Source of the DNA: a virus
Strand: one strand, 5' to 3'
Length of the DNA: 64,000 nucleotides
Virus record (IMG/VR): IMGVR_UViG_3300016471_001035
Location: 32,001-96,000 of that record
The notes below the pieces were generated by a model. That model was not told the origin of the DNA. It did not search any database and worked only from the letters and a program-made list of their open reading frames with translations. Below, piece after piece: positions 1-45,257 of this stretch. Each line of letters begins with the position of its first letter. Positions within the stretch are counted from its first letter, which is position 1. Both the position numbers and the translations under genes were made by a program.

Positions 1-1936
1 CGCCATCAATATTTACTTCATGCTGACTACCAATATTAACCTGCAGTCCAGTAATGTTTGTCATTGCTCCAGAAATATTAACTACACCAAAGCTTTTCAT
101 GTTTAACCCCCCAGCTCCTACTAGTATATTGAATTTATTACAAACGTTTAGTGAATATGTTCCTCCAGGTAAATCGTCGACCTGAACTTGCTCGATATAA
201 GGTGTAGGTTTTCTTGCACTGTAGGCTCCGTATTTTGATACAGCTACTTCTGATATCAACAATCTACCCTCTAGGTCAACTCTTAATGGTGAAAAATCAT
301 TCATCACTGTACCAATAGTTTCAGTTTTATTTTTTGTAATGTCTATTATCTCGCTTCCTCCTAGTCCCATTTGTCTTTCAAGTTCAGTTAATTCTCCTAT
401 TTTCGATCGAATTAAATCCGGGATTTGTGATTTTTCAGGTGTTTGTGAGAAATTGCCTCCAGCAGAACTAGGACTCGAGCCACTACCACCGCATGTTTCA
501 CATGGACTGCCAAATGCATCACCTGGACCTGATATATATGTACTTCCGTCTGCTGTACCGCCAATTGTATCCATCGGGCTTATATAAACTGGTTCTCCCT
601 GATGTCCTATGCCATTTTCAATATTTGGTGTTAAGCCCCCGGGGCCTGGGCTTTTTAGCCAAGAAGTATTTCCTCTATTAAATGCAGTAGTCCAATTCAT
701 AACTTGCTTAAAGGCCTGACCGTTACCGCCGCTACCAACTGAAGAATTAACAGTAAATCTTTTTTCAAATGGCTTGTTACAAGATGGACATGTGTCTCTA
801 CCTGCTCCTGATGCCCTATCAATATTAAACAAAGTTTTTATTTGATTTATAAGAGAAACCTTTTCTTTCCATTGCTGATGTACTTCTGTATCTAGTTTTC
901 CTATTTTTTTATAAAAATCACCAATTACTATATTATCATAGTCAAAAGCAGTAAATTCATTTCTGTATCCTCTTACTGTTAAATATTGATCTTTTAAAAC
1001 TAATTTCTGATCGTTTCCTGTAGCTAGCTCTATACTTACGCTATTATTAAATTCTTTAAATGACCCCGAATAATGAGTAAATTTTAATACTTCCTTGTTA
1101 TCTGTATTAACAAAAGCTATTGTGCCGCCTTTTTGATTTATAACATACTTATTTCTATATGTTTCGGTATTAATATCTTCTGTTTCATTTTCTTTCTTGG
1201 AAACATTTTCGTAAGTACCTGGATAATCTATACCCTCGTCTAGTTCGCTATTGTCAATAGAATCTTCATCAACTATATCATGTATTCCTTTCCAATCTTC
1301 ACTTCCAAAAGATGCAGCAAATACTACCGGTTTTAAAGGGTCTCCATCATTAAAGAATACCCATACATGCGCTCCAACTCTTATAAGAGGAAATGCTCCC
1401 TTAGCACAATTGCTATAAGCCTCAGGCTTATACATAAATGAAAACTCGTTAGCAGAATTTGCATTTATTTCTGCAGGGTCGCTAAAAGCATCTTTTAATT
1501 TGTAGTAACTTATATCGTAAAGATTGGCAGGCTTTTCCCCTATTCCATCAACATTTTGTGAATCCTCTGTTACTTCGTCTTGATTAGGCTCACATGAGCT
1601 TAGATTAACAAAAGCTGTTTTTATATCATTACTGTCGCTTATTGTTGATGCGTTTTTAGAAGCGTTGAATCTACCACTAGCGCTCTCACCAGCAAGAGGA
1701 GCAGCAAGTTCTGCCCAAGGTAAAATTAATTTTAAATCTTCTAATATTTCAGTAATATCGCTACAAACATTAGCTCCTATAAATTTAAATTTTTTATCCT
1801 TAGATACCTCATTCCATTTATTATAAACTGTTGGTGATATATGGGGTACAAAAACTTTAACTCTACCTCTTTTTGCCGGGTCATTATTTTGAACGACAAT
1901 ACCTAGATAATTCCCGTAATATTTTGGATGATTCAT
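1..1936 (-). CDS. gp5-like baseplate hub/central spike protein (runs off the left edge; absent from ORF track)
   Basis: Hand translation from ATG at 1936: MNHPKYYGNYLGIVVQNNDPAKRGRVKVFVP...LPWAE...GAHVWVFF..GDPLKPVVF, typical of the gp5/VgrG OB-fold; frame open in every segment checked, ending in beta-helix-like GLNMKSFGVVNISGAMTNITG. Confidence 0.8.
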   Translation of the reverse strand, partial: MNHPKYYGNYLGIVVQNNDPAKRGRVKVFVPHISPTVYNKWNEVSKDKKFKFIGANVCSDITEILEDLKLILPWAELAAPLAGESASGRFNASKNASTISDSNDIKTAFVNLSSCEPNQDEVTEDSQNVDGIGEKPANLYDISYYKLKDAFSDPAEINANSANEFSFMYKPEAYSNCAKGAFPLIRVGAHVWVFFNDGDPLKPVVFAASFGSEDWKGIHDIVDEDSIDNSELDEGIDYPGTYENVSKKENETEDINTETYRNKYVINQKGGTIAFVNTDNKEVLKFTHYSGSFKEFNNSVSIELATGNDQKLVLKDQYLTVRGYRNEFTAFDYDNIVIGDFYKKIGKLDTEVHQQWKEKVSLINQIKTLFNIDRASGAGRDTCPSCNKPFEKRFTVNSSVGSGGNGQAFKQVMNWTTAFNRGNTSWLKSPGPGGLTPNIENGIGHQGEPVYISPMDTIGGTADGSTYISGPGDAFGSPCETCGGSGSSPSSAGGNFSQTPEKSQIPDLIRSKIGELTELERQMGLGGSEIIDITKNKTETIGTVMNDFSPLRVDLEGRLLISEVAVSKYGAYSARKPTPYIEQVQVDDLPGGTYSLNVCNKFNILVGAGGLNMKSFGVVNISGAMTNITGLQVNIGSQHEVNIDG

Positions 1937-1937
1937 G

Positions 1938-1966
1938 TTGATCTTATTATTATTTACATTTATAAT
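1938..1966 (+). promoter_or_regulatory. sigma70-type promoter, predicted leaderless start of the dpdA-queF operon
   Basis: TTGATC(1938)-N17-TATAAT(1961)-AGTATT-ATG(1973). Confidence 0.75.
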
Positions 1967-1972
1967 AGTATT

Positions 1973-2803
1973 ATGCTAATGAAAGTATCCCATGAATCTC
2001 CTGTGTCTATTCTAGAATATTCAAAGGAATATAATGATTTTGACTACTGCTTAGTACATCTATTACATCAAAACGCAGGTTCTCCGCAACAATTAGCATA
2101 TAATAATTATTATTCCCATGCCAGATCACTCTATAATAGAGAGGTATTATTAGATAACTCTATTTTCGAGCTCGGAAAAGCTTTCGATCCAGAACAATTT
2201 TATAAATCTGCAATGCTCATCAAACCGAATATGTTTATTGTTCCCGATGTTTTAGAGGATGCAGACGGTACTGTTGAGAGTTGGAACAATTTTGAAGCTA
2301 AGACCGATGATTTAAAGAAAAGTTTTTATACAAAATCGATAGGAGCTGTGCAAGGTAAAACATGGAAAGACTTAGTAGATTGTTATAAGTTTATGTCAGA
2401 TAACGCTGATATGATTGCTATTAGCTTTGATTTTAGTTATTATCAAGCTATAGGGTATGGTAAAACGGAGCTTGAAAGATTCTGCTCAGGTCGTCAGCGC
2501 TTTATTGCGGATTTAATAAATAGTAATGTATGGGATTGGAATAAGCCTCATCATCTTTTAGGATGTTCCCTAGCTAAAGAATTTAGATATTATGTCGATA
2601 GAAACGTTTACAATATTGTCTCTTGTGATACTAGTAATCCTATTGTATGTGCAATATTCGGATTAAAGTATGATGCAGATTACGGTTTAAGTAATAAACC
2701 GAAAGTTAAGTTAGCTGATCTTATTTCTCACGAATTTACTGATGAGCAACTTGATTTAGTAAAATACAATACATCGATGTTTAAAAAAATTATTAGAAGA
2801 TGA
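1973..2803 (+). CDS. dpdA: DpdA-family (TGT-fold, probably DpdA3-like) 7-deazaguanine transglycosylase/ribosyltransferase
   Basis: TGT-like motifs VLLDNSIFELG, IVPDVL, GAVQG, HHLLGC, SCDTSNP; first gene of an operon ending in queF; start moved to 1973 from promoter geometry. Confidence 0.75.
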   Translation: MLMKVSHESPVSILEYSKEYNDFDYCLVHLLHQNAGSPQQLAYNNYYSHARSLYNREVLLDNSIFELGKAFDPEQFYKSAMLIKPNMFIVPDVLEDADGTVESWNNFEAKTDDLKKSFYTKSIGAVQGKTWKDLVDCYKFMSDNADMIAISFDFSYYQAIGYGKTELERFCSGRQRFIADLINSNVWDWNKPHHLLGCSLAKEFRYYVDRNVYNIVSCDTSNPIVCAIFGLKYDADYGLSNKPKVKLADLISHEFTDEQLDLVKYNTSMFKKIIRR

Positions 2804-3369
2804 GACCCTGGGTAACATTTTTTTCGCAAACTGGTACAGAGATTAATAATTTATGTAATGCTTTAGGTATATATCCGGACGCAATTATTACAAACAAACA
2901 GACTACTGATGATATTAATAAGGATTTTTTAACCATTACAACCTTTAGAACACAAAAGCTTAATAGAACAATTTTGTTCACTCTCCCTCACAAACCTAGC
3001 TTAGAGAATTATTTTGAGGTTTTAAGTAAATTTAATAACCCAGTTATAACGTTACATGGCTATTTGAGAATAATACCTAAAGAGATTTGTGAGAAGTATG
3101 AAATCTATAACCTACATCCCGGTTTAATTGACAAATACCCGTCTTTAAAAGGATTTAATCCTCAAGAGAGAGCTTTTATTGGTGGCTATAAGCATGCAGG
3201 ATGTGTTATTCACAAAGTAGTACCTGAAGTTGATGCGGGTGAAATTCTCTTAAGCCAGGGAACAAGTATAGAGGGGTTGACACTTCCACAAGTATACAGC
3301 AAATTACATAATGTTGCATTTGACTTGTGGAAAAGCTTATTTCAAGGGTATAAAATTTTAGGAAAATAA
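2800..3369 (+). CDS. PurN-like formyltransferase (DpdN-like, candidate preQ1 N-formyltransferase)
   Basis: FSQTGT, LHGYLRII, NLHPG, GCVIHKV..EVDAGEI motifs; ATGA-coupled to dpdA. Confidence 0.85.
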   Translation: MRPWVTFFSQTGTEINNLCNALGIYPDAIITNKQTTDDINKDFLTITTFRTQKLNRTILFTLPHKPSLENYFEVLSKFNNPVITLHGYLRIIPKEICEKYEIYNLHPGLIDKYPSLKGFNPQERAFIGGYKHAGCVIHKVVPEVDAGEILLSQGTSIEGLTLPQVYSKLHNVAFDLWKSLFQGYKILGK

Positions 3370-4340
3370 TGGATATATCTTTACATTACGAAAACGTTTT
3401 TTTAAAACCTAATTTTAATAATGTTAAAACTAGGGCAGAGATAAACACTGAAGTAAATTTTTTAGGTAAAGTTTTTCGCTTGCCTGTAATTCCTGCAAAT
3501 ATGAAATGCTGTGTTGATTTTGATATTTGTAACATTTTAGACTCTAGAAATTATTTTTACGTGATGCATCGGTTTGATCATGATATCTTTGGTTTTGTAA
3601 AAGATGCTAATGAAGTGTCATTTAACAATGTTTCAATAAGTGTAGGAATACAAAATAAAGATAAAGCATTAATAACTAATTTAGCTAATAGTAAGTTTAG
3701 AGTAGATTTTATTACTATTGATGTTGCGCACGGTCATCATTCAAAAGTTGCTGATCAAGTAAAATTTATTAAAGATACTCTTCCTAAGACAAGAGTTATT
3801 GCAGGTAATGTTGCTACGCGAAATGGTGTTGAATATTTAGCTGTTGCAGGAGCTGATGCTGTTAAGGTGGGTATTGGTGGGGGGTATGCCTGCACTACAA
3901 AGGATAAAACAGGATTTACCTATCCCATGTTTAGTTGTGTTATGGAATGCGCTAGCACTGAGGCGTCAAATTTTGACATACCTGTTATAGCAGATGGCGG
4001 TGTAAGATGTAACGGAGATATAGCTAAAGCTTTAGTAGCCGGTGCTAAGATGGTTATGTGTGGCTCTATATTTGCAGCCTGCTCTGATAGCCCTGCACCG
4101 GTTGTTAAGGATGTTTCTGGAAGGCGCTTTAAGCAGTACTATGGTTCTGCTAGCGTACATAATAAGATGGATAAAAAGAATATAGAAGGTACAATGAAGC
4201 TTATGGAAACAGATTCATTTACTTATGAAGAAAAAATATTAGAAATAACTCAAGACCTGCAAAGCGCTATAAGTTACGCCGGAGGTTGCAATCTTAATGT
4301 TCTTAATTTAAGTAAAGTTGGTTACGGGGTAAGATTATGA
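3369..4340 (+). CDS. guaC: GMP reductase (Bacillus-type)
   Basis: [51 protein letters not shown]. Confidence 0.9.
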
Positions 4341-4684
4341 ATCCAGACGATGTAGTTAAAGCAGTTGAATCAGCTTACCCTGAGACTTGCGAAGAGTTTA
4401 AAAAGATTCAACAAGAGCAATATGAAGTATTTTGTAAAAAACAATTTGACTACGGTCCTCATAATATTAGCTTGGGGTCAGATTTACATAAAAAAGAGGA
4501 CATTAATGCCTCTATTTCAGCAATAGTCGTACGTCTTAATGATAAGATACAGAGATTGATTAACTTAGTTTTGCGCAAAAAAACTTTTGAATCTGCAAAT
4601 GAACCGATTTTTGACGCTTTTGGTGACACATCAGTTTATTGTATTATAGCAGAAATTGTTAAGAGAAAGAAATGGTGTAAGTAA
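4337..4684 (+). CDS. DUF1599 / nucleotide-modification-associated domain 1 protein (all-alpha NTP-PPase-like)
   Basis: KKQFDYGPHNI...VRLNDKIQRL...FGDTSVYCII pattern. Confidence 0.75.
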   Translation: MNPDDVVKAVESAYPETCEEFKKIQQEQYEVFCKKQFDYGPHNISLGSDLHKKEDINASISAIVVRLNDKIQRLINLVLRKKTFESANEPIFDAFGDTSVYCIIAEIVKRKKWCK

Positions 4685-4830
4685 TGTCGTTATTAGATAT
4701 TTTTAGAAATAAAGTAGATAAAATACGTGAGTTAGAAGAAGAAAATGAAATATTGAGACATGAAGTTTATGTCTTGAAAAACTTACTTTTTAATATAGAA
4801 TTAGATGAGCTAGTTAAGAAGAAAAAATGA
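4684..4830 (+). CDS. 48-aa coiled-coil protein (not in ORF track)
   Basis: MSLLDIFRNKVDKIRELEEENEILRHEVYVLKNLL...; TAATG overlap upstream and ATGA overlap downstream fill the gap exactly. Confidence 0.7.
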   Translation: MSLLDIFRNKVDKIRELEEENEILRHEVYVLKNLLFNIELDELVKKKK

Positions 4831-5411
4831 ATATAACATTTACTGGGCCGCAATGTTCAGGCAAGACTACTTTACTTAAATTAATGAGAAGTAGTGGAGG
4901 TATATTTGATAAGTTTTTTTATATTGACGAAGTTACTAGAAAGATAAGAGATGAATGTAATATACCTATTAATGAAGAGGGTGCAAACGATGTAACCCAA
5001 TTACTAATTATAAACGAGGAACTAAAGAATTTGTTTAATAATAGTAGTATGGATAGTTGGTGTAAAGGTACAGTGCATGATAGGTGTCTGCTAGACGGTT
5101 TAGTTTATACAGAATACTTTTATAGCAAGAAGCTAGTCAGTTATCAGGTTTGGACACAAGCGCACTGGTATTGGCAGAGATTTTTTAGTAAGTATGATAT
5201 AATTTTCTATCCATGTCCTCATGATGTTCAACTAATAGATGATGGTGAAAGAAGTGTTGATACAGAATTTAGAAATTCAATAATTAAACTATATGAGGAT
5301 CACTGGTTAAAACAATTTGAGTGGAAAGATAGGATAACTATTTTAAAGGGAACAGTTGAAGAACGCTTAGAACAGATTAAAATTAAACTACATGAACAAG
5401 GTATTAGATAA
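4827..5411 (+). CDS. P-loop nucleoside/nucleotide kinase-like protein (AAA_28/dNK-like)
   Basis: GPQCSGKTT Walker A, DRCLLD motif, DDGER lid. Confidence 0.75.
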   Translation: MNITFTGPQCSGKTTLLKLMRSSGGIFDKFFYIDEVTRKIRDECNIPINEEGANDVTQLLIINEELKNLFNNSSMDSWCKGTVHDRCLLDGLVYTEYFYSKKLVSYQVWTQAHWYWQRFFSKYDIIFYPCPHDVQLIDDGERSVDTEFRNSIIKLYEDHWLKQFEWKDRITILKGTVEERLEQIKIKLHEQGIR

Positions 5412-6306
5412 CAGTAATATTTCGAAACACTTAGGTAAAGTAACCGGTTATAAGTCAACTTACGACCCTTCTCTTTTAGTCAGAGAACCGAGAATTAATA
5501 ATCGTAAGCATTTAGGTATTACTGATGAAGATGCACCTTTTGGTGGTTATGATATTTGGAACGCATATGAGGTGTCTTGTTTAACAGCTGAAGGTATGCC
5601 TATTGCTGCTATTGCTAAGATTGTATATCCATGCAAAAACCATTATATTGTTGAGTCAAAATCAATTAAACTGTATATGAATTCTTTTAATATGCAAATA
5701 TTTAAAGGTAATATGATTCAAGTATTAAACGAATTACAAAATACTATTGCAAATGACTTATCTAATTTACTTGAAGCTACTGTTAAGGTATATGTAAGGT
5801 CAGCTGCAGCGGTATCAGATGACATATATTATCCTCCAGTCTTTAATAATAAAGACTACCCTACCCTTGAAAATAATATTGATGTTACGATGATACAATC
5901 AAAATCTTACGTAGAGGATCCATCTATTTTATCCGCAATAGAGATCCCTGAAGCTAGGATACAAAGATTTCATTCTGCTTTACTAAAAAGCAATTGTAGA
6001 GTTACATCGCAACCAGATTGGGGCGACGTTTATATACATTATAAAGGTAAGTACGAAATCAATCAAACATCGCTACTACAATATATCGTTTCCTTCAGAG
6101 ACGAATGCCATTTTCATGAAGAGATATGTGAGACCATTTATATGCGCTTATTTAGATTATTTAAGCCTGAAGAGCTTGTTGTAAGTTGTTTATATGTAAG
6201 GCGTGGTGGTATTGATATTAATCCTACTAGAGCTAGTAATTATAGCTTATTAGACAAAGCTCTAATAGATGAGTTTAAATATTTTACTAAGACGGTAAGG
6301 CAGTAA
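5392..6306 (+). CDS. queF: NADPH-dependent preQ0 reductase, bimodular (E. coli YqcD type)
   Basis: YDPSLL, DIWNAYE, VESKSIKLY, LKSNCRVTSQPDWG, HFHEEIC, RRGGIDINP. Confidence 0.95.
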   Translation: MNKVLDNSNISKHLGKVTGYKSTYDPSLLVREPRINNRKHLGITDEDAPFGGYDIWNAYEVSCLTAEGMPIAAIAKIVYPCKNHYIVESKSIKLYMNSFNMQIFKGNMIQVLNELQNTIANDLSNLLEATVKVYVRSAAAVSDDIYYPPVFNNKDYPTLENNIDVTMIQSKSYVEDPSILSAIEIPEARIQRFHSALLKSNCRVTSQPDWGDVYIHYKGKYEINQTSLLQYIVSFRDECHFHEEICETIYMRLFRLFKPEELVVSCLYVRRGGIDINPTRASNYSLLDKALIDEFKYFTKTVRQ

Positions 6307-6672
6307 TTAACCGTTTAAATTCCAGAGTCTCTGTTTTTCAGGGCCTACTGATTCGTAACCATTGAGAGTTAATGTTTGCGCAGTTGTACCGGTATCTACC
6401 GTGAACGTATAGGATGTACCGTCATTTAATAATAATGCCATTACTGTACCATCATAATTATCGGCAACATTTAAATTTGCAGTATTTCCGCCTACTGATA
6501 ATGTAATATTAACATCAGCTAATGTAGGGGTGACAGCATTGAAAAGAACACCCTTTACATTGGTGCTTAATGAATTAGCTGTAACACCGTTATTAACCGT
6601 TGACAGGTTAAATGATGTCGGAAATGTATCAGCCGGATCGGCTACTATATTTGAAAATACTTGTAAAGGCAT
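6307..6672 (-). CDS. small beta-rich virion protein (possible head decoration)
   Basis: T/N/V-rich ORF downstream of MCP; start at 6672 follows AATAAATA-N5. Confidence 0.6.
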   Translation of the reverse strand: MPLQVFSNIVADPADTFPTSFNLSTVNNGVTANSLSTNVKGVLFNAVTPTLADVNITLSVGGNTANLNVADNYDGTVMALLLNDGTSYTFTVDTGTTAQTLTLNGYESVGPEKQRLWNLNG

Positions 6673-6717
6673 ATAATTATTTATTCTTTGCAGGCAATTT
6701 TTTTGTATGAGAACAAT

Positions 6718-6747
6718 AAAAAAGGGCACCGCAAGATGCCCTTTTTT
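6718..6747. terminator. intrinsic terminator after the major capsid gene (bidirectional form)
   Basis: AAAAAAGGGCA-CCGCAAGA-TGCCCTTTTTT. Confidence 0.85.
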
Positions 6748-6806
6748 AAAGATCCTGGGACTTACCAGGTGAAAATTGACTTTCTTTTTGTCATCCGATG
6801 TACTTC

Positions 6807-8330
6807 TTAGAAGTAAACCGACTGTGTTCCAGGAACGAACGGAGTACCGAGGTTCTTGAGAATAATGACGTGGTAGTAAAGATTTGCACCAAAGATGTTG
6901 TCTACTACACCATAACGTGTTAGTAAGCCAACGCGAGGAGCAAAATCATTAGGACCAATTGTTCTCTGAACCATTACCGGGATGTACGGACAATAGATGA
7001 TACCAGTGTCGTAGAATTCCGGGCCCTTGTAACCAAGGAGTGCATACTCGAGGCGTACTTGACGCGAGAAGTTCTGGGTGCCATAAGCTGTTGGCCAGCC
7101 CTGACCCTGGAAATTACCAGGAGGGATGCCACCAGTATTATAAGCTTCAGCCTGAGCTTCTGTGCGAGTATCACGGTAAACGTTGAACCTGCCACCCAGC
7201 GAACCTACTTTTGCAACACCGACGGGCTGTGTATTAACATTACCCTGTACTGGTACCCACTGGAATTCAGGGAGCATTTCTAGGATAGCGCAAACGCGAG
7301 GTGTAGCAACAACGAAGTTGGCAGAACCACGGCGATTACGTACTGCAATACGATTAGCTTCGACGATTAGTCTCTGATAGAAGTCACGATTACGTTCAAC
7401 GAGCCAGCGACCGTCTGCTGATACGGGCGACCAGATTGAATAACCTGTGCCGTAGCCAGCATTGAGTGCTGTCTGGATCATGCGAATGATCATTTCACGG
7501 TCGATTTCGGCCTGTAGCTCATACGACATAGCGTTTGTGAGCTCAGTATCGATATCGATACCGTTCATGTTCTTAAGATCCTGCTCGAGCTCAACTGACC
7601 AGCGAGCGGCGAGACGGCGTGTGCCGGCCTCGACTGCTGTCTTCTCAAAGCTTACAACGACCTGAGGAATGTTTGCATTCAACTCAAACTGGCTGAGTAG
7701 CTGTGCAACACCCTGATCCTGTGTTAGCATTGTGAAGTCGGAATTACCCGACAATTGTGGCTGCTGCGTTCCGGTAAAGCCGGAAGCGAGGAACTGATAC
7801 CCTAGCTCAGGGTTTGTCGACAATGACTGTAAGAACGAGCTAGCATACTTTGTTGTAGAGTTGCTTGCGTCGATCTTGCCATCGGGATTGTAACCTAAGC
7901 TGGTGGGTTCGTACTTATAACGGAGGGCAAAAGCAAGACCTACTGGACCGCTCATGGGCTGAACACCAACGATTTCGTTAGTGATCAACTCAGGGAACGT
8001 ACGGCGAATCATCGGGATGAGGATCTTCGGTAGACGCGCATCGCCTTGGGCGTAAGCAGCATCATTCTGTGAAGGGAACTGGTTACCGTAAGCGCCATTA
8101 TTAATAGAGCCTCCGAATACGCCAGTGTTTCCACCGACTGTGTTGCTAGCCTCAAAGCACCACTTCTCTTGGTTTTCCAAAAGGATAGCGGTGTTTAAGC
8201 GTGTGTGATCGTCTTCGATAGCGCGGACGTTATCGGAAGAGTAATCCAGAACTGGACCCCACTTCTCGAGAAGTACCTTAGCGCGTGACTCATCAATGTA
8301 AGCCTGTGTAGGACGAATTTGTTTAGCCAT
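6807..8330 (-). CDS. gp23: major capsid protein, T4 gp23-like
   Basis: LLEKWGPVL, ILLENQE, GVQPMSGPVGLAFALR, ELEQDLK, LQAEIDRE, YCPYIP, TRYG. Confidence 0.97.
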   Translation of the reverse strand: MAKQIRPTQAYIDESRAKVLLEKWGPVLDYSSDNVRAIEDDHTRLNTAILLENQEKWCFEASNTVGGNTGVFGGSINNGAYGNQFPSQNDAAYAQGDARLPKILIPMIRRTFPELITNEIVGVQPMSGPVGLAFALRYKYEPTSLGYNPDGKIDASNSTTKYASSFLQSLSTNPELGYQFLASGFTGTQQPQLSGNSDFTMLTQDQGVAQLLSQFELNANIPQVVVSFEKTAVEAGTRRLAARWSVELEQDLKNMNGIDIDTELTNAMSYELQAEIDREMIIRMIQTALNAGYGTGYSIWSPVSADGRWLVERNRDFYQRLIVEANRIAVRNRRGSANFVVATPRVCAILEMLPEFQWVPVQGNVNTQPVGVAKVGSLGGRFNVYRDTRTEAQAEAYNTGGIPPGNFQGQGWPTAYGTQNFSRQVRLEYALLGYKGPEFYDTGIIYCPYIPVMVQRTIGPNDFAPRVGLLTRYGVVDNIFGANLYYHVIILKNLGTPFVPGTQSVYF

Positions 8331-8407
8331 ATAAATTATATTTCTCCAATATAATATGTCGACCTTTTATAAACTATTCAGGGGTTAAACCCTCAACAAA
8401 AGCAAAA

Positions 8408-9292
8408 TTAATATTTCGAAAGCTCGCCCATGTAAGTATTAAACATTGGATCTGTTTCATTTACTTCTTGGGGCTGTACAGCTTCTTCAATTACTGGTCT
8501 ATCAACTTGTGCAGATACAGTTTCAGAAACCGCTTCCGTTTTTAATGCTTTTAGCCGCTCTTCTTCTGTCTTTTCAAACAGCTTTAAAGTGTAGTCAAAG
8601 TTCTCTTTAATGAACTCTGCAGACTTACCATTAAGCATTTTCTTCATGTAAGTCTTTTTAGCCTCATCGAGATCAGAAACTTTCTCTTCAAGCATTGCTT
8701 TAGCGGAGAGCTTCTTATTTTCATCGGCGAGTCTTGCTACTTCTTTGGTAGCGGCTTCAAGCTGGCTAGCAGCTTCATCTAGTCTTGTCTTCCCGTCTAC
8801 TACAGCTTCGCGAATATTATCTTTCGCTAAAGCCATATCAACAGAAAGAACTTGGCGTAAATTCTCTAATAGAGAAATAGCCTTTTTATTTTGTACAGCT
8901 TCATTTACAGAAGCTGTTGGTAGTTTTTCTTCTAGATATATATCTAGATATTTACTAATTTCATCAACTAGTGTATTTTTGAAAGATGCTGCTTCGTTAT
9001 TCAACTCTGCTTCATACTTTTCAACTACCGTTTTTAATTTAGCAGCGCGATCAGTATCAATTGCTTCAACAACCTTTTTGAGCTTGTTGGTATGATCTGT
9101 ATCGATTGCTTCAATTAAAGTCTCTAATTTCTTGGAATAATCTGCATCTTGTTCAGCAAGAGCTTTTTCAACATGAATCTGTACCTTTTCATTTACAGAT
9201 GATTCAAATGCTGATTCTAATTCCTTAAGAACGTCCTCAGTTAGGATATCCTTTGTTGCTTCCTTAAGGGTCTTGCTTATGTTTGTTTCCAT
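8408..9292 (-). CDS. gp22: prohead scaffold/core protein, gp22-like
   Basis: acidic coiled coil between gp21 and gp23; YLDIYLEE and C-terminal MFNTYMGEL. Confidence 0.85.
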   Translation of the reverse strand: METNISKTLKEATKDILTEDVLKELESAFESSVNEKVQIHVEKALAEQDADYSKKLETLIEAIDTDHTNKLKKVVEAIDTDRAAKLKTVVEKYEAELNNEAASFKNTLVDEISKYLDIYLEEKLPTASVNEAVQNKKAISLLENLRQVLSVDMALAKDNIREAVVDGKTRLDEAASQLEAATKEVARLADENKKLSAKAMLEEKVSDLDEAKKTYMKKMLNGKSAEFIKENFDYTLKLFEKTEEERLKALKTEAVSETVSAQVDRPVIEEAVQPQEVNETDPMFNTYMGELSKY

Positions 9293-11749: not shown

Positions 11750-13552
11750 TTAAGCTGCAGGTGCAGCTCCGGCGGCACCTCCTTGAGCTGGCGTACCGCC
11801 TGCGGTGGCTTCACCGCCCCCGGCGGCAGGGGCTTCAGCAGCACCACCTCCAGCCGCAGCAGGGCCTGGGCCAAACTCCGGAGGAGTTCTAGTAGCAGAA
11901 GCACCACCACCCATACCACCTCCGCCCCCAGCTTCTTGACCGGCTGCTCCTGGTGTTGTCGCGCCAAGCTCTCTCCAATTTGGCCCATTATTAGTAATTT
12001 GATCTAATTCCCATAAAAATTCTCTATCTTTTCTTAAAAATTGTCTATTAGCCATAATATCTACCTCTGACCAGCCAAGATATTTCTTCTGTGCGAACGT
12101 TTTTGAAACTAAATCACTCTGAGTAATGTTATTAAAGTTCTCTGCTTTAAGCTGGAATTTTTGATTTTCTCTTAATTCATAGAAATTAGTAGGTACATTA
12201 AACATTAAATCAATGTCTGTTTCGCGGAGCTTATATTCTTCCCAAATTTTTCTTAATTTAAGATGAGTAATAAATCCATTTTTTAATCCAGCCGCAAAAC
12301 GTTGCTGCTGGCGAATTATAAATCTTGCAAATTTAAGCTCTTCTCTAAGAATATCTGCACCATCTTTAAATACGTCTTCAACATTTAATCGGGTAACTGG
12401 AACTTTTAAAGACTTATAAAGCTTTTGTACAAAGTACATAAGGTCGGTTAGCTCGCCCAAATTTTGACCTCCAGGTAATTGAACCACTTCAGTACCGGTA
12501 GAGCCGGTGCGCTTTGCAAACCAAAAACTATCTAACATACTTTGAGGATTAAATTTTTGTACAGAAGCACCTTGGTCTGCATCATAAGTTCTTCGTGACC
12601 AATAATTTTGCATTAGCTTACGGAGGTATGCTTCTGCTTTAGGAGGAGCCATATTACCAACATCAACATTGAATACAAGTCTTTCTGGGGCTCTTACAAG
12701 CCTATAAATAACAATTGCATCTTCTATTAGAGATAGTTGTCTGTAAGCTCTACGAGCGTTTTCAATAAAAGGTAATCTGACTGTTTTTGTTTCATTCCAA
12801 ATACCAGAGTTAATATAAGTAACTTGATTTATATCCATCGGAACTAATTCAACCTTAGCAATTTTTCCAGGATTCTTAGCATCATAAATATTTTTTCTTA
12901 AAAGATAACCTCTTACAATTTGATTTTGTACATTTTCAAAAACAGGGTCTATAACATCTGAAGGAACAGTTACCACACCTAAAATACCTTCTTCAGGATA
13001 TTTTTTATGAATAATATGTTCCCAATATAGCTCAGCATCAACTAATAATTGTCTAAGATATTCCCACCCTTTGTTTTCTAAATCAAAAAAGCCAATATAT
13101 TTTTGAAATTCTTTTTTTAATTTCTCTTTTTGATCTTCTGATATTGTAGCGGTTTTAAAAAATATTTTTACTATATCACCATTATCATCTTTATTAATAA
13201 ATTCATCGCAAATCTCATCCAACGCATCAGCTACTTCAGCAAACGCAGCCATTACTCTATAGTCCATTAACCTACGGCCTTTATCAGGCTGAAGATTAGC
13301 GTACATAAAGTTGTGGTAATCTTTATTTTGCACTACATTAGCATAAAGATCATCAGTAAAGCTTAAAGATGAAGAAACCGACTGACGAGCAAGGGCCTCT
13401 TCTCTTTGTGTTCCTTTATTAAAGAATTCAGCGTACTTAGGATTAAGCTTGTTTATTTGATCTTCAATACCAAGAGACTGGTAAGGCAGTTTTGAAGATA
13501 TAAACTTTACCAGCTCTCTTCCGAACGTACTCTCTCTATTTGGGTCTGCCAT
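11750..13552 (-). CDS. gp20: portal protein gp20 with G/A/P-rich C-terminal tail
   Basis: IEDAIVIYRLVRAPERLVFNVDVGNM, LPGGQNLGE, ILREELKF. Confidence 0.96.
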   Translation of the reverse strand: MADPNRESTFGRELVKFISSKLPYQSLGIEDQINKLNPKYAEFFNKGTQREEALARQSVSSSLSFTDDLYANVVQNKDYHNFMYANLQPDKGRRLMDYRVMAAFAEVADALDEICDEFINKDDNGDIVKIFFKTATISEDQKEKLKKEFQKYIGFFDLENKGWEYLRQLLVDAELYWEHIIHKKYPEEGILGVVTVPSDVIDPVFENVQNQIVRGYLLRKNIYDAKNPGKIAKVELVPMDINQVTYINSGIWNETKTVRLPFIENARRAYRQLSLIEDAIVIYRLVRAPERLVFNVDVGNMAPPKAEAYLRKLMQNYWSRRTYDADQGASVQKFNPQSMLDSFWFAKRTGSTGTEVVQLPGGQNLGELTDLMYFVQKLYKSLKVPVTRLNVEDVFKDGADILREELKFARFIIRQQQRFAAGLKNGFITHLKLRKIWEEYKLRETDIDLMFNVPTNFYELRENQKFQLKAENFNNITQSDLVSKTFAQKKYLGWSEVDIMANRQFLRKDREFLWELDQITNNGPNWRELGATTPGAAGQEAGGGGGMGGGASATRTPPEFGPGPAAAGGGAAEAPAAGGGEATAGGTPAQGGAAGAAPAA

Positions 13553-23039: not shown

Positions 23040-23777
23040 TTATTTGCCTGTAATGATTTTTTTACGTATACGATCCTCCTGTTTTTCTTCAAACAATGCA
23101 CTTTTCTGTGCTTTTAAAAGTCTTTCCATATCATCTAGATTTTCTTGATCTAAAACACTAGTCTCATCTTCGATTAATTCACCTTTATCATTTAAGTAAA
23201 ATTTTATCATTTCAATTCTTTGCTCGGGATTACCAAAAATTTCTATAATAGGAGGTCTATCATCTTTAGCTAGAAAAGGGCATATACCATTTCTCATAAG
23301 ATTTTTTTCTATTACTTTAAAAATGTTATCTATTTCTTGAATAAACAATATGTCTATTTCACGGCTTTTCTTTTCTTCTATTTTAACAGGTGCAACTTTT
23401 GTAATAGGTAAGAAAAAAACAATATCAATCGATTTCATACTTTCCTGAACTAAAGGAATGCATTTTTCTATAAATTTTTTATCAATATCTGAAGAACCTT
23501 TTTCTTCAGCCCAAAGAGAATATACCAGGTTATCTAGGGGACATCTATCAAAAATAATTTTATCTCCTTTTTGTGTGCTTTGAATATCATCAATAAGGCA
23601 GTTTAAAATCTTCCATTGACTTTCTTGATCAACCTCCTTATTAATTTTTATATTTTCTTCTTTAATAAGCTTTCTATATGATTCATTTGATCTGCTATAT
23701 GTAGGCCAGTATTTTAAAAAATCTTTTACTAGAGTGGTTTTACCTTGACAAGCACTACCAGAAATAGCTATTCTCAT
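23040..23777 (-). CDS. second P-loop nucleoside/nucleotide kinase-like protein
   Basis: MRIAISGSACQGKTT, FDRCPLDN; starts 1 nt after the queE stop. Confidence 0.75.
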   Translation of the reverse strand: MRIAISGSACQGKTTLVKDFLKYWPTYSRSNESYRKLIKEENIKINKEVDQESQWKILNCLIDDIQSTQKGDKIIFDRCPLDNLVYSLWAEEKGSSDIDKKFIEKCIPLVQESMKSIDIVFFLPITKVAPVKIEEKKSREIDILFIQEIDNIFKVIEKNLMRNGICPFLAKDDRPPIIEIFGNPEQRIEMIKFYLNDKGELIEDETSVLDQENLDDMERLLKAQKSALFEEKQEDRIRKKIITGK

Positions 23778-23778
23778 A

Positions 23779-24522
23779 TTATACTTTAAGCGCTTTATCC
23801 CAAATAACAAGCTGTAACCTAGGGCTAAACTTTAAACAATGTTTTTTAGCTAACTCTGCTACAAACGATGCTTTTTCAACATGCTCGGCTCTACTACCAC
23901 AGCATGGCATAAGCCATACTCTTTCACGAGGTACTTGTATATCTTTATTATTAATATACTTTGTAAAAACTTCTTCTAAGTCACGCTCTTCATTTATGAC
24001 AAATTTAAATCCAGAATTGTTTTTAACATGCCATTTTAAAACTTCTGGCTTATATCTTTTTTCTTCCGGGTCACCATTATTAGAAAGTTTAGGTGACGTT
24101 GTAAAAGTTGCTTTCCAGTCTAACCACTGAAAATCAGGAATAATAGTAGCGTTGGTTTCGAAGTCTATCCTCGGAACAAAGCCAAATCTAAAAATAAATT
24201 GATCAACAAGCTCGAGTAGCGCTTTTTGCTGTATTAGCGGTTCACCGCCTGTAATTTTCCATATTGCTCCGTCCTTTAGATTACAGTTAAAACTATTTTG
24301 CGCCATATATTCAAAAATCTGTTCATATGTCATTCTATTTTTAACCGACCAGCTGATAAAGCTATCACAACCATGAGGTGAATCTGATGAAGCAAAACCT
24401 TTACATGTTAAATTACACATAGAAAGACGCATAAAAACAGAGGGGCAGCCAACGTATTCCCCTTCGCCTTCGATTGTATAAAAAATCTTATCATCACTAA
24501 GAAATATAGTTTTTTCACTCAT
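23779..24522 (-). CDS. queE: 7-carboxy-7-deazaguanine synthase (radical SAM)
   Basis: IFYTIEGEG, FMRLSMCNLTC..GCDS, ITGGEPL, FETN, SPKL, KFVI, FSPRLQ. Confidence 0.92.
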   Translation of the reverse strand: MSEKTIFLSDDKIFYTIEGEGEYVGCPSVFMRLSMCNLTCKGFASSDSPHGCDSFISWSVKNRMTYEQIFEYMAQNSFNCNLKDGAIWKITGGEPLIQQKALLELVDQFIFRFGFVPRIDFETNATIIPDFQWLDWKATFTTSPKLSNNGDPEEKRYKPEVLKWHVKNNSGFKFVINEERDLEEVFTKYINNKDIQVPRERVWLMPCCGSRAEHVEKASFVAELAKKHCLKFSPRLQLVIWDKALKV

Positions 24523-24575
24523 AAAAGTATTATTATATGACATAATTTAGTATATTCAAGAATAAATATTAATAG

Positions 24576-25436: not shown

Positions 25437-26090
25437 TTATGACCCCCAGCTTGTACCGCCAAACAAATTCGAATAGCCTTCAGACTTCGGGCTCTTTAGG
25501 GGTGCGGGCCTCGCACCAGCTTGTGTATTACTCACTGGTATTTGTTTTAAAACATTTGATATAGGTATACCTGTTTCCTTTTCAATTTCATTTATTGTTT
25601 CTCTTATTGGGTTAACCGGTGGTTGAAAAGAAGGGCCTGGTGTTGAGGATGTCTCTACAGTTACTATGCCAGAATTCTTTTCATGCTCCCATACTTCAAC
25701 TCTTTCTACCCAACATCTCTCATTTGTAAGTTTTCTAATGTAAGAGTCTGCTGCATTAAAACACCACTCTGCAGTTTTCTCAATACCCACACCTTCTGGC
25801 ATTATTCTTAAATCACAACCACCGGCTGTATGTAGCGTTTTAAACCCTTCTAGTAAAGGGTCATCACCTGCAACACATAATGTATGATCAAACTGTTTTT
25901 CTAATATATTCTTTAAATCTTTTAAACCACCGAAATCAACAACCCAATTACGCTCGTCTAATGAATGACATGCAAACCAGAATTTAGCTATTAATCTATA
26001 ACCGTGAATAAATTTGCAATGGCTATCAGCTTTCCATTGTCTAAATGCACAAGAACCTAATTCAATAATTTTAGTACTTTTATACGTCAT
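25437..26090 (-). CDS. queD: 6-carboxytetrahydropterin synthase with disordered C-terminal extension
   Basis: SCAFRQW.ADSHCKFIHGY, WVVDFGGLK, QFDHT, VEVWEHEKNS. Confidence 0.92.
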   Translation of the reverse strand: MTYKSTKIIELGSCAFRQWKADSHCKFIHGYRLIAKFWFACHSLDERNWVVDFGGLKDLKNILEKQFDHTLCVAGDDPLLEGFKTLHTAGGCDLRIMPEGVGIEKTAEWCFNAADSYIRKLTNERCWVERVEVWEHEKNSGIVTVETSSTPGPSFQPPVNPIRETINEIEKETGIPISNVLKQIPVSNTQAGARPAPLKSPKSEGYSNLFGGTSWGS

Positions 26091-28209: not shown

Positions 28210-28863
28210 ATGTTTAAGAAGAAGTTAGCTTTTGCAAATCATAATCACCCTCATACTCAAGAAGAAAGAGAACAAATAATTGAACGGGCAGCTAAAGCAT
28301 ATGAAGCTTACATGGATGCTTTAGGATATGATTGGAGAAACGATCCTAATAGTGATAATACCCCGCATAGAGTTGCTAAGGCGTTTGTAGAGGATTTTGC
28401 TTGGGGCTGCTATAGTAATCCACCTAAAGTAACAGCTTTTGATAATGTAGATAAGTATGATGGAATTGTAGCGCAGACTAATATTAAAGTTACTTCACTT
28501 TGCTCGCATCACCATGCTCCATTTATGGGGTTTGCTCATGTCGCATATATACCTTCTAAGGATGGAAAGGTCATTGGTCTAAGTAAGCTCAATCGAATTG
28601 TTGATTGGTTTGCTCGCCGTCCGCAGGTTCAAGAAAACCTTACAATGCAGATTCACAAGTATATTGATGAGGTCTGTGAAAAGAATAAGGGTGTTGCCGT
28701 AATGATTGAAGCCGCACATACTTGTTGTTCAAATCGTGGTATTAGACATGATTCAACAATGCGTACCGCTAGAATGTCCGGTGCATTTTTAGATGATAAA
28801 GATAATTCTAGAAACGAGTTTTATAAGTTCATTGAGTTTGCGCAAAATAGAAAACTTATTTAA
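28210..28863 (+). CDS. folE: GTP cyclohydrolase I
   Basis: TPHRVAK, SLCSHHHAPF, VIGLSKLNR, RRPQVQE, HTCCSNRG. Confidence 0.96.
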   Translation: MFKKKLAFANHNHPHTQEEREQIIERAAKAYEAYMDALGYDWRNDPNSDNTPHRVAKAFVEDFAWGCYSNPPKVTAFDNVDKYDGIVAQTNIKVTSLCSHHHAPFMGFAHVAYIPSKDGKVIGLSKLNRIVDWFARRPQVQENLTMQIHKYIDEVCEKNKGVAVMIEAAHTCCSNRGIRHDSTMRTARMSGAFLDDKDNSRNEFYKFIEFAQNRKLI

Positions 28864-42668: not shown

Positions 42669-45257
42669 GTGTATAGAAATGTTGCATATCTTCCTAGAGA
42701 GCAGCTTATGCGGCTATTTACTTGGGATAATGAGGGTAAAAGAGTAGCCCTTGATACAACCTATGAGCCGTACATTTATCTCGAAACAAATAATCATCCT
42801 GACTGTACTAGTATCTTTAACACCAAATTAAAGAAAAAAAGATTTAAAAATCAAGCTGAACGCTCTAGATATTTAAAAGACAATAAAATTGTAAGAGTAT
42901 TTGAAAATCTTAATATTCAACAGCAATTTTTAATTGATAATTTCTGGGAGCACAATGAAAAAGAGGATTTTACTAAACATCAAATAAGAGTTTTGTTTAT
43001 TGATATTGAGACTTACAGTCCCGATGAGTTTCCTAAACCCGACGATCCCACCCATCCCATTAATATTATTACAGTTTATGATACACTAAGAAATAAGTTT
43101 ATTACCTGGGGACTAAAAGCATATCATAAAAATATTGAAAACGGGCTATATATTTATTGTAAAACTGAGAAAGAGTTGTTATCAAAATTTTTAAGTTTTT
43201 TTACTTCTGATTATCCCGATATACTCTCAGGCTGGAATAGTGAATTTTTTGACGTACCTTATATTATTAATAGAATAACCCGAATTCTTGGTGAGGATGA
43301 GACAAAAAAATTATCACCAGTTGGTTATATTAGACCTATTATGTTCAAAGGTAAGTTTGGTAGAGAACAGGTGCACTGGCACATAGAGGGCGTTTCATGT
43401 GTAGATTACCTAGACATTTATAAAAGATTTTGCCCTACATTACGCGAATCATATAAACTTGATTCTATTGGTGAGATTGAATTGGGTGAAAATAAGATTG
43501 ATTACGGTGATACTAATCTTACTAGCCTTGCAGATGATAATTGGGAATTGTTTGTAGAGTATAATATCCAGGACGTTAATTTGCTGGTAAGGTTAGAGCA
43601 AAAACTTCAATATCTTGAATTATTAAGGATGATTGCTTATGCGGGGTTAACTACATTTGAAGGCGCTCTTGGTTCATTATCAGTAATTACGGGTTTATGT
43701 GCTATTAGAGCGAGGTCTCGTAATCAAAGAATCCCTACTTTTAATAAGGAAGTTCACAGCGATGAACAAAATGCTGGTGCGTATGTTGGTGAACCACGCA
43801 AAGGGTTTCAGGAGAATATAGTTTCATTTGACGCTAATAGTCTATATCCAAATGTTATGATAACATTAAACCTCTCTCCTGAAACAAAGGTAGGGGTAAT
43901 CACAGATAAAAATGATAAAGAAATAACTATACAGCATGTAAACGGACAAGAATTTAAATTATCACATCAAAGCTTTGTTGATTTTGTAAAGAAAGAAAAG
44001 ATAGCTATTTCAAAAGCAAAAGTTTTATTTACTCAGAAAGAAAAAGGAATTATACCGGTAACTGTAGATCATTTTTACAAGAAGAGAGTAGAGATTAAAA
44101 GACAGCTTAAACTTTTACAAAAGAAAATTATTTCTATAGAGAAAAACACAGATGAGTATAAGCAACTCAAATTGCAGATAGATAATTTAAATATTACTCA
44201 ACATACTATAAAAATCTTAATTAATACCATATACGGTTATTTCGGTAATAAGCACAGTCCCTTAGGCGATGATCAGCTAGCTGAGAGTATTACTCTTACA
44301 GGCCAAGCTGTAATTAAAGAATCTAATAGATTATTAGAAGAGTATGTAAAAAGTAAGACAGGAATGAGTAATGAAGATATCATAAAAGATACGCCTATAA
44401 TTTACAATGATACTGATAGTTCGTACATTTCTATTAAACATATCGTACAAAAAACAGGATTAAAAATGCTTGATAGTAAGGGTAAAATTACTTCTGAATA
44501 CTATAAAGAGGTACAGTCAATAGAGGACTATCTTAATAAAAATATTGTTGTCTGGGGTCAAACTGCGCTTGGTTCGCAAGATTGTAGGTTAAATTTTAAG
44601 AGAGAAGCTATAGCAGATGCAGGGATTTTTCTACAGAAAAAGAGATATGTACTTCACGTATTAGATGAGGAAGGCATACCATGCAATAAGTTTAAGTATA
44701 CAGGGGTAGAAGTGGTTAGGACTACTATGCCTGCGCCTATAAAGCCCCACGTTAAAAAGATTATTGAGACAATGTTATTAACAAAAGACCTAGCAGCTAC
44801 TAATAAAATTTTTAATGAAACTTATGAAATATTTAAAAACCTTAGCGTAGAAGATATAGCTTTTGTAATGGGCATTAAGGGGTATGAGAAATATTCATCG
44901 ATGTGTGACGGCTTTAAGACAGCAAAACATATGCCTATTCACGTAAAAGCTGCATATTTTTATAATATTTTGCTCGATAGGTTTAATACAGGTAAAAAGT
45001 ATGAAAAGATATCATCTGGAGATAAAGTAAGATATTTTTATGCTAAACAGCCCAACAAATTCGGTATATCTACTATCGGCTATAAGTATTCCTTTCCTAA
45101 AGAATTTAATGATGTGTTCGAACCTGATCACGAATTAATGTTTGAGAAAATTATTTTCTCAGTTATTGAGAGATTTTATGATGCAGTTAATTGGAAGCTT
45201 CAATCCCCAGGGACACAGGTTCAAACTGACCTTTTTGATCTACTAAAAGAAAGTTGA
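42669..45257 (+). CDS. gp43: family B DNA polymerase gp43
   Basis: DIET, GWNSEFFD, YNIQD, SFDANSLYP, KILINTIYG, YNDTDS, KKRY. Confidence 0.97.
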   Translation: MYRNVAYLPREQLMRLFTWDNEGKRVALDTTYEPYIYLETNNHPDCTSIFNTKLKKKRFKNQAERSRYLKDNKIVRVFENLNIQQQFLIDNFWEHNEKEDFTKHQIRVLFIDIETYSPDEFPKPDDPTHPINIITVYDTLRNKFITWGLKAYHKNIENGLYIYCKTEKELLSKFLSFFTSDYPDILSGWNSEFFDVPYIINRITRILGEDETKKLSPVGYIRPIMFKGKFGREQVHWHIEGVSCVDYLDIYKRFCPTLRESYKLDSIGEIELGENKIDYGDTNLTSLADDNWELFVEYNIQDVNLLVRLEQKLQYLELLRMIAYAGLTTFEGALGSLSVITGLCAIRARSRNQRIPTFNKEVHSDEQNAGAYVGEPRKGFQENIVSFDANSLYPNVMITLNLSPETKVGVITDKNDKEITIQHVNGQEFKLSHQSFVDFVKKEKIAISKAKVLFTQKEKGIIPVTVDHFYKKRVEIKRQLKLLQKKIISIEKNTDEYKQLKLQIDNLNITQHTIKILINTIYGYFGNKHSPLGDDQLAESITLTGQAVIKESNRLLEEYVKSKTGMSNEDIIKDTPIIYNDTDSSYISIKHIVQKTGLKMLDSKGKITSEYYKEVQSIEDYLNKNIVVWGQTALGSQDCRLNFKREAIADAGIFLQKKRYVLHVLDEEGIPCNKFKYTGVEVVRTTMPAPIKPHVKKIIETMLLTKDLAATNKIFNETYEIFKNLSVEDIAFVMGIKGYEKYSSMCDGFKTAKHMPIHVKAAYFYNILLDRFNTGKKYEKISSGDKVRYFYAKQPNKFGISTIGYKYSFPKEFNDVFEPDHELMFEKIIFSVIERFYDAVNWKLQSPGTQVQTDLFDLLKES

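Follow-up and report, generated by a model that had tools for sequence, protein, structure and literature searches.

How does a phage come to have most or all of the guanine in its DNA replaced by a deazaguanine: is the base exchanged in DNA that has already been replicated, or is a modified nucleotide made beforehand and offered to the polymerase? The question is raised by an operon of seven open reading frames (ORFs) on the plus strand, at 1973–6306 of a 64,000-nucleotide stretch of viral DNA. This stretch, referred to throughout as the window, comprises bases 32001–96000 of the 139.6-kb IMG/VR viral record IMGVR_UViG_3300016471_001035, which is approximately 66% complete. The operon encodes a DpdA3-family transglycosylase (ORF1), a DpdN-like formyltransferase (ORF2), a GMP-reductase-like enzyme (ORF3), a DUF1599-like protein (ORF4), a P-loop nucleotide-kinase-like protein (ORF6), and the nitrile reductase QueF (ORF7), with a 48-aa ORF ahead of the kinase gene. 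Very probably, it belongs to the DpdA3/DpdN/QueF deazaguanine system described for Flavobacterium phage immuto, with 7-(formylamino)methyl-7-deazaguanine most likely replacing the bulk or the whole of the guanine in the phage DNA. We read the chemistry of the end product from homology to immuto, the DNA of which has no detectable deoxyguanosine (dG) and carries fdPreQ1 (PMC10516641). The operon itself varies on a system already described; the novelty lies in a pattern of gene linkage and protein architecture pointing to a nucleotide-level mechanism.

The enzyme at the center of this question, ORF1 (1973–2803, plus strand), has no Pfam or NCBIfam match. Because the Pfam family of tRNA-guanine transglycosylases (TGTs) was not matched anywhere in the genome, even at E 10, ORF1 was placed by its homologues and its fold. 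It is 41% identical to gp206 of immuto and 43% identical to gp056 of Campylobacter phage CP220, and matches phrog_19058 with E 1e-48. A tblastn search of 50,697 phage records, the set used for all phage comparisons below, returned at E 1e-3 or better only Firehammervirus proteins (~42% identity), those of the immuto phages (41%, annotated as DpdA), and distant homologues in Bacillus and Weizmannia phages (~26%). The CP220, phiST, and immuto proteins have been defined as DpdA3, the subfamily tied to complete replacement of guanine (PMC10516641), and among DpdA1 to DpdA4 it is to the CP220 and immuto members of this subfamily that ORF1 is closest by both tblastn and PHROG membership.

The fold leads to the same superfamily. 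Searching the PDB with the ORF1 sequence gave nothing useful, and a family profile produced a marginal match to DpdA (E 0.52). The AlphaFold (AF2) model of ORF1 (predicted local distance difference test score, pLDDT, 96; predicted template modeling score, pTM, 0.92) had as its best Foldseek match the Zymomonas mobilis TGT (E 4e-9, probability 1.0). VIA-align gave a Z score of 18.0 for bacterial DpdA (PDB 7ui4), 17.9 for the archaeosine TGT (ArcTGT), 16.2 for TGT, 15.7 for QTRT2, and 14.8 for Cap10, with generic TIM barrels scoring 15.4 or less. The key residues of DpdA are Asp95, Phe99, Asp130, Leu236, and Asp256 (PMC10164549). In an alignment of 71 DpdA3 sequences, D61, S63, E66, P91, D92, G128, R174, H194, L196, G197, D219, and P223 are invariant. 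D61-x3-F65 mirrors Asp95-x3-Phe99 of DpdA, and profile alignment pairs HLLG...SxD(219) with the DpdA stretch bearing the stacking Leu236 and the nucleophile Asp256; only D219 was aligned by HMMER in this comparison, D61 and D92 being mapped by motif and spacing. As judged from these alignments, the predicted general-acid, base-recognition, and nucleophile aspartates are kept in ORF1, and fold and motifs together identify it as a transglycosylase-type enzyme.

What the DpdA3 family has not kept is the part of the protein that meets a polynucleotide. The tRNA- or DNA-binding surface of TGTs and DpdA is provided by Ins8, a large insertion that follows the nucleophile strand and is held in place by a CXCX2C...H zinc site; in DpdA, Ins8 alone comprises 128 residues and includes Phe265, which is essential. 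DpdA3 proteins have only ~57 residues after the nucleophile D219, and no conserved cysteine was found in this region of the family, in which the only conserved cysteines are at positions 137 and 198. We infer from the short C-terminal region and the missing cysteine cluster that DpdA3 is without the Ins8/zinc insertion. The barrel and active site are kept, and the polynucleotide-binding part is gone. The median isoelectric point (pI) of the family is 5.5.

The remaining chemistry expected of an immuto-type system is encoded in the window. ORF2 (2800–3369, plus strand) is a PurN-family formyltransferase resembling DpdN (PF00551, E 7e-16, scoring 58.9 bits where the cut-off is 26.1). It shares 45% identity with immuto gp204 and has the catalytic set of N104-x-H106, an NLHPG motif at 104–108, and a downstream Asp. 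Its gene adjoins dpdA3 in 59 of 71 viral loci (described below). The natural substrate of PurN is an amine on a sugar 5'-phosphate and resembles dPreQ1-MP, the monophosphate of the preQ1 deoxynucleoside. Natural fusions of DpdA3 to a formyltransferase were also observed (P0127, P0154, and L137:5977–7365), the last with a kinase gene immediately upstream; among 150 family representatives formyltransferase fusions were the only kind seen, with neither the kinase nor ORF4 fused to DpdA3. ORF7 (5392–6306, plus strand) is a bimodular QueF, the nitrile reductase that converts preQ0 to preQ1 (PF14819, 118 bits; PF14489, 81 bits), with a QueF motif (ESKSIKLY) at residue 88 and the catalytic Cys202 within NCRVTSQP. 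It is 46% identical to immuto QueF (gp202) and scores 264.8 against TIGR03138, below the cut-off of 293.45.

Further along the window are genes for FolE, the GTP cyclohydrolase I (28210–28863, plus strand); QueD (25437–26090, minus strand, by its PTPS domain); a QueE-like radical S-adenosylmethionine (SAM) enzyme (23779–24543, minus strand, PF13353), kept beside QueD and PhoH in related loci; and QueC (46765–47535, plus strand), located between a UvsX-like recombinase gene and a BNR-repeat gene. With QueF, the pathway to preQ1 is complete within the window. The QueD ORF is 217 aa long, of which the PTPS domain occupies residues 14–141 only, leaving a C-terminal extension of ~75 residues.

ORF6 (4827–5411, plus strand) is a thymidylate-kinase/NadR-like P-loop protein (PF13521, E 5e-13, 50 bits against a cut-off of 27; phrog_2107), 30% identical to immuto gp203 and 31% to the CP220 kinase. 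A profile of its family matched thymidylate kinases (E 9e-4 to 3e-3) and the ribosylnicotinamide kinase (RNK) of NadR (E 9e-3) in the PDB. Invariant in this family are the P-loop GxxxxGK(T/S), a DRC motif, and R38, R86, R142, R149, and R180, hallmarks of nucleoside monophosphate (NMP) kinases, and ORF6 is predicted to be a kinase on these grounds. Among the phage records, the family was found only in phages carrying DpdA3, namely Firehammervirus and immuto. A paralogue of ORF6 (27% identity, E 2e-10; PF13521) is encoded directly downstream of queE at 23040–23777 on the minus strand; it had no match among the phage records. Of 13 related viral loci, 12 retain the pairing of this second kinase gene with queE, which suggests that its product may perform a second phosphorylation step.

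The wider context of the DpdA3 family was sampled through IMG/VR and contigs of metagenome-assembled genomes (MAGs). The synteny set comprised 95 unique IMG/VR loci. In 71 of these the sequence extends 4.5 kb or more past dpdA3, and every one of the 71 has the kinase beside DpdA3, in six arrangements: dpdA3-formyltransferase-orf4-kinase-queF (29 loci), the same with guaC, as in the window (19 loci), dpdA3-formyltransferase-kinase-queF, as in immuto (11 loci), dpdA3-kinase-queF (10 loci), dpdA3-orf4-kinase (one locus), and dpdA3-kinase, as in CP220 (one locus). Based on these counts, the core consists of DpdA3 and the kinase, to which QueF, DpdN, ORF4, and GuaC have been added at falling frequency. 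Co-occurrence across phages, which the sequence-only reading of this DNA had offered as a check on its module, is invariant in these loci for DpdA3 and the kinase and partial for ORF4 (49 of 71) and guaC (19 of 71). CP220 and immuto, whose flanking genes otherwise differ completely, also carry the kinase. In 15 more distant MAG contigs it is kept in 7 of the 11 loci with enough flanking sequence. An ORF upstream of the DpdA3-like gene of Bacillus phage BSTP12 is only weakly like the kinase (hhalign E 0.0034, probability 9.6%) and was not counted as one.

A second recurrent neighbor is a gene of predicted nucleotide-phosphohydrolase type. In immuto this is gp208 (L002:7282–7806), annotated as "hydrolase" and resembling PRA-PH/MazG proteins, two genes upstream of dpdA3; in CP220 it is gp055 (L003:6898–7929), annotated as "AAA ATPase", an HD-phosphohydrolase domain fused to an AAA_33 kinase, directly upstream of dpdA3. 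With the DUF1599-like gene of the window, each of the three lineages appears to pair DpdA3 and the kinase with a different gene of this predicted type.

The protein that would fill this position in the window, ORF4 (4337–4684, plus strand; phrog_1485), is a 115-aa all-alpha protein that weakly resembles DUF1599 (Nmad1). It has no Pfam match of its own, and its sequence gave nothing useful against the PDB. Seven of 17 orthologues match PF07659 weakly, below gathering level (best E 0.012). Among the 30 ESM-Atlas clusters closest to ORF4, 27 bear the PF07659 set (score 0.96), with the family on 34–59% of the members of the three best. Its AF2 model is all-helical (pLDDT 84) and gave no Foldseek match below E 1; the best VIA match, AF_0060 (2p06), aligned 85 of 88 residues at Z 7.5, a score within the helical-bundle background, and DCTPP1-type entries ranked low. 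No relation between the ORF4 family and the immuto PRA-PH protein was found with hhalign. Residues E89, D93, and D97 and several Lys/Arg positions are invariant in the family, and it is possible that ORF4 is a nucleotide-binding protein or phosphohydrolase. The DUF1599 label given by the sequence-only reading thus finds weak support in the orthologue and ESM-Atlas matches, and the action as an NTP pyrophosphatase on dGTP that was proposed with it derives from a weak fold resemblance.

ORF3 (3369–4340, plus strand) is a GMP-reductase-like enzyme of GuaC type 2 without a CBS domain (PF00478, E 9e-57). It matches the Bacillus-type GMP reductase 1ypf in the PDB (E 5e-70) and keeps the Cys-Thr loop, aligned to GIGPGKVCITK; it was filed as GMP-reductase-like because it falls below the curated NCBIfam equivalog cut-offs (NF003966, 319.2 bits against 344; TIGR01306, 282.7 against 465.65). 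The sequence-only reading had made this enzyme part of a module swapping the guanine nucleotide pool, and its distribution speaks against such a core role: guaC occurs in 19 of the 71 loci, always together with ORF4; immuto and CP220 lack it, and its homologues are common in unrelated large phages without deazaguanine genes. We consequently rejected GuaC as a core component and regard it as accessory. A DUF1599-like domain (8213–8782) and a GuaB/GuaC-like gene (12272–13369) were also observed 3.5 kb apart in Microcystis phage Mel-JY01 (L004), near genes for SAM synthase and several glycosyltransferases. This DUF1599-like domain is 41% identical to ORF4 and forms the C-terminal part of a 190-aa ORF. 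As Mel-JY01 gave no DpdA3 match, the pair may be a separate purine-nucleotide module.

Taken together, these genes could operate as follows. The phage would make preQ0 with FolE, QueD, QueE, and QueC, QueF would reduce it to preQ1, and DpdN would formylate the aminomethyl group. DpdA3 would swap guanine for the deazaguanine base not on DNA but on a guanine deoxynucleotide of the free pool, for which dGMP is the simplest choice; the adjacent kinase, perhaps together with the queE-linked paralogue, would phosphorylate the modified deoxynucleoside monophosphate (dNMP) towards the triphosphate (dNTP), which the family-B polymerase of the phage would then incorporate. The DUF1599-like protein would perhaps be a nucleotide phosphohydrolase keeping dGTP out, the counterpart of the immuto PRA-PH/MazG-like protein and the CP220 HD gene. 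GuaC, perhaps with a phosphoribosyltransferase (PRTase) of the phage, would be an optional addition draining released guanine and GMP to inosine monophosphate, which would drive the exchange in the forward direction and leave less dGTP available. To our knowledge, neither base exchange nor formylation on DNA needs an ATP-dependent step.

On balance we lean slightly towards this pre-replicative order of events, DpdA3 exchange followed by phosphorylation, because of the kinase linkage, the loss of Ins8 and its zinc site, the phosphohydrolase neighbor in each lineage, and the inactivity of DpdA3 alone in E. coli. The sequence-only reading had likewise placed the replacement at the nucleotide level; the first three of these observations lend that part comparative support, its use of GuaC as a core component is not borne out, and the role of the DUF1599-like protein on dGTP is weak. 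A more specific proposition, that DpdA3 is the first TGT-superfamily enzyme to exchange a base on a free deoxynucleotide (dGMP + deazaguanine -> deaza-dGMP + guanine), acting with one or more kinases and a lineage-specific phosphohydrolase, seems to us an evenly balanced one.

The published proposal is that DpdA3, like all DpdA subfamilies, acts after replication (PMC10516641). Under this proposal the enzyme would be a DNA-guanine transglycosylase swapping guanine for preQ1 or formyl-preQ1 in phage DNA that has just been synthesized, the P-loop protein would be a DpdB-like ATP helper or an unrelated salvage kinase, and GuaC and the DUF1599-like protein would belong to general nucleotide metabolism. 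We consider this the chief alternative, though less likely, and the observations that incline towards it, or otherwise weigh against exchange on the free nucleotide, are several. The solved structure closest to ORF1 is that of a DNA enzyme, DpdA (Z 18.0), and bacterial DpdA requires an ATPase partner, DpdB (PMC10164549), so that an ATP-using neighbor is not necessarily a nucleotide kinase. Related T4-like phages supply the majority of the 71 loci, so that the synteny count is inflated by common descent, and four of the 11 diverse MAG loci lack a kinase within 6 kb. In three of these four (L142, L143, and L146), as in phage BSTP12 (L132), dpdA3 lies directly beside a family-A or family-B DNA polymerase gene, a placement that could equally suit an enzyme acting at the replisome. 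(In L146 the polymerase has an intein-splicing domain as well.) GuaC would compete with FolE for GTP, and its occurrence in many phages without deazaguanine genes suits a general metabolic role. The fold match of ORF4 at Z 7.5 lies within the helical background and its enzymatic role is only predicted, and no HD or MazG domain was found in the 139.6-kb record, an absence that is inconclusive at ~66% completeness. Post-replicative exchange is in turn disfavored by a DpdA3 that is without the DNA-binding insertion, the essential Phe265 position included, and that belongs to an acidic family. Its partner resembles an NMP kinase in its DR motif, invariant Arg, and thymidylate-kinase matches, and not DpdB, an ATPase of the ParB type. 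Replacement of all guanine is, moreover, what substitution at the level of the nucleotide pool typically yields, whereas DpdA subfamilies other than DpdA3 modify at most ~30% of guanine, and DpdA3 alone was inactive when tested in E. coli (PMC10516641).

Replacement before replication could also be reached without a base exchange, if the deazaguanine base were converted to a ribonucleotide by a phage PRTase and passed through two kinases and the phage ribonucleotide reductase to the polymerase, leaving DpdA3 to patch residual guanine or to some other role. PRTase (G000:22213–22620) and ribonucleotide reductase (G000:27898–29412) genes do lie just upstream of the window, immuto has a PRTase gene inside its que cluster, and two kinase paralogues are present. 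We nevertheless judge this route improbable: the PRTases of the two phages are not detectably related, and tblastn at E 1e-5 finds that of the window phage in no phage record; the PRTase gene is 10 kb from the operon and not linked to it, whereas DpdA3 and the kinase form an invariant core; and no PRTase is annotated in the 16.7-kb stretch of CP220 examined. Least probable of all is a role in tRNA rather than DNA, with ORF1 as a tRNA-guanine transglycosylase in an operon that modifies tRNA of the host or the phage in the manner of queuosine. The TGT fold would allow it, and QueF and preQ1 belong to the bacterial tRNA pathway; but ORF1 has no match to Pfam TGT at any level searched, is without the zinc/Ins8 region and the tRNA-contacting parts of the C-terminus, and has its nearest characterized relatives in phages with fully modified DNA, not tRNA, and the formyltransferase and kinases have no role in queuosine-tRNA synthesis. 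A tRNA enzyme, the outcome that would have undone the sequence-only reading, is thus very unlikely given the TGT/DpdA fold and the DpdA3 homology.

The ORFs of the operon, all on the plus strand, run from 1928 or 1973 to 2803, 2800–3369, 3369–4340, 4337–4684, 4684–4830, 4827–5411, and 5392–6306, with successive stop/start overlaps of 4, 1, 4, 1, 4, and 20 nt, which make translational coupling real. For ORF1, 1973 is a better start than 1928, since homologues are 268–276 aa long and align from residues 1–3 of the 276-aa form. Family or homologue support is significant for six of the seven ORFs, with synteny kept in up to 71 independent viral loci. The seventh, the 48-aa ORF (4684–4830), has no family match, has a tblastn match in one of 45 related loci, and is missing from the closest relative (L007), making it doubtful as a gene. 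A candidate sigma-70-like promoter (TTGATC-17-TATAAT; 1938–1966, plus strand) lies just upstream of dpdA3, and promoter-like matches are at chance level in this DNA (21 found against 26.6 expected in shuffled sequence). Of the seven coupled genes behind one promoter that had been described, then, the coupling and six genes stand and the single promoter is only putative; the gene identities assigned at the same time are upheld by family, homologue, and motif evidence, with the exception of the weak DUF1599 label. No intrinsic terminator follows queF, because a convergent, conserved 140-aa gene (6307–6729, minus strand) abuts its stop codon. This gene, which has no Pfam or PHROG match, has homologues of 35–57% identity at the same position in many related loci.

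The operon sits between genes for a gp5-like baseplate hub (2–1936, minus strand), divergent from the operon with its start at 1936, and the Gp23 major capsid protein (6807–8330, minus strand). Downstream of the capsid gene is a near-perfect 14-bp hairpin (6717–6748, G-T pairs allowed) with A and T runs on either side. It resembles a bidirectional terminator, and the GTG annotated as the start codon of the 140-aa ORF overlaps with it. A family-B, gp43-like DNA polymerase (42669–45257, plus strand), a UvsX-like RecA, and a DnaB-like helicase are encoded further along the window, the G+C content of which is ~32%. By its gene content, the source virus is a T4-like phage from the environment. Its capsid protein is ~32% identical to cyanophage capsids and DNA nearly identical to the operon was not found among the phage records, indicating a phage without a cultured close relative.

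In the literature searched on DpdA3, a kinase, or a pre-replicative route, we found no description of a DpdA3–kinase association or of a nucleotide-level route. The pattern reported here runs counter to the published statement that every deazaguanine modification of DNA arises after replication (PMC10516641), and post-replicative exchange, the only published proposal for complete guanine replacement, has not been reproduced in E. coli. If replacement does occur on the nucleotide, it would give the TGT superfamily a new type of reaction, raise the kinds of pre-replicative base replacement in phages to four, and provide enzymes for making 7-substituted 7-deaza-dGTPs. The DpdA3 family is large (3,322 clusters at 90% identity, 1,262 at 50%, and >530 IMG/VR loci), suggesting that many aquatic phages may have DNA of this type.

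Among characterized systems, that of immuto is the closest, in support of the link that the sequence-only reading drew to phages combining DpdA3, DpdN, and fdPreQ1. Immuto has the same four genes in the same order (gp206, gp204, gp203, and gp202; 41%, 45%, 30%, and 46% identical to ORF1, ORF2, ORF6, and ORF7, respectively) and, like the window phage, is a myovirus from an aquatic sample with a full FolE/QueD/QueE/QueC set. The window phage adds GuaC, the DUF1599-like gene, and the 48-aa ORF between dpdN and the kinase gene; immuto differs in having the PRA-PH/MazG-like hydrolase near dpdA3 and a family-A rather than a family-B polymerase. In the Firehammervirus CP220 (gp055-gp056-gp057), DpdA3 is likewise followed directly by the same kinase family, with a phosphohydrolase gene adjacent. 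CP220 differs in its end product, 2'-deoxy-7-amido-7-deazaguanosine (dADG), with complete replacement of guanine, and in the fusion of the HD domain to an AAA_33 kinase; no QueF or DpdN match was found in the region examined. Bacterial DpdA, which modifies <0.1% of guanine (PMC10516641), is a more distant comparison. The enzyme of S. Montevideo (PDB 7ui4) and the TGTs share with DpdA3 the TIM barrel (Z 16–18) and the Asp, stacking Phe/Leu, and nucleophile motifs; DpdA3 differs from them in having no Ins8, no CXCX2C...H zinc site, ~140 fewer residues, and no Pfam TGT match.

The closest parallel in logic lies outside the superfamily. Pre-replicative base replacement in phages is marked by a dedicated NMP-type kinase and a hydrolase of the canonical nucleotide: phage T4 makes its hydroxymethylcytosine (hmC) DNA with gp42, the dNMP kinase gp1, and the dCTPase gp56, and Z-genome phages employ PurZ, MazZ, and DatZ. 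We know of no base exchange by a TGT-superfamily enzyme on free nucleotides, and the T4 and Z-genome proteins are unrelated to those described here, where the first step would be such an exchange. The same three predicted gene types, a maker of the modified dNMP, a dedicated kinase, and a hydrolase, are nevertheless found around DpdA3 in three phage lineages.

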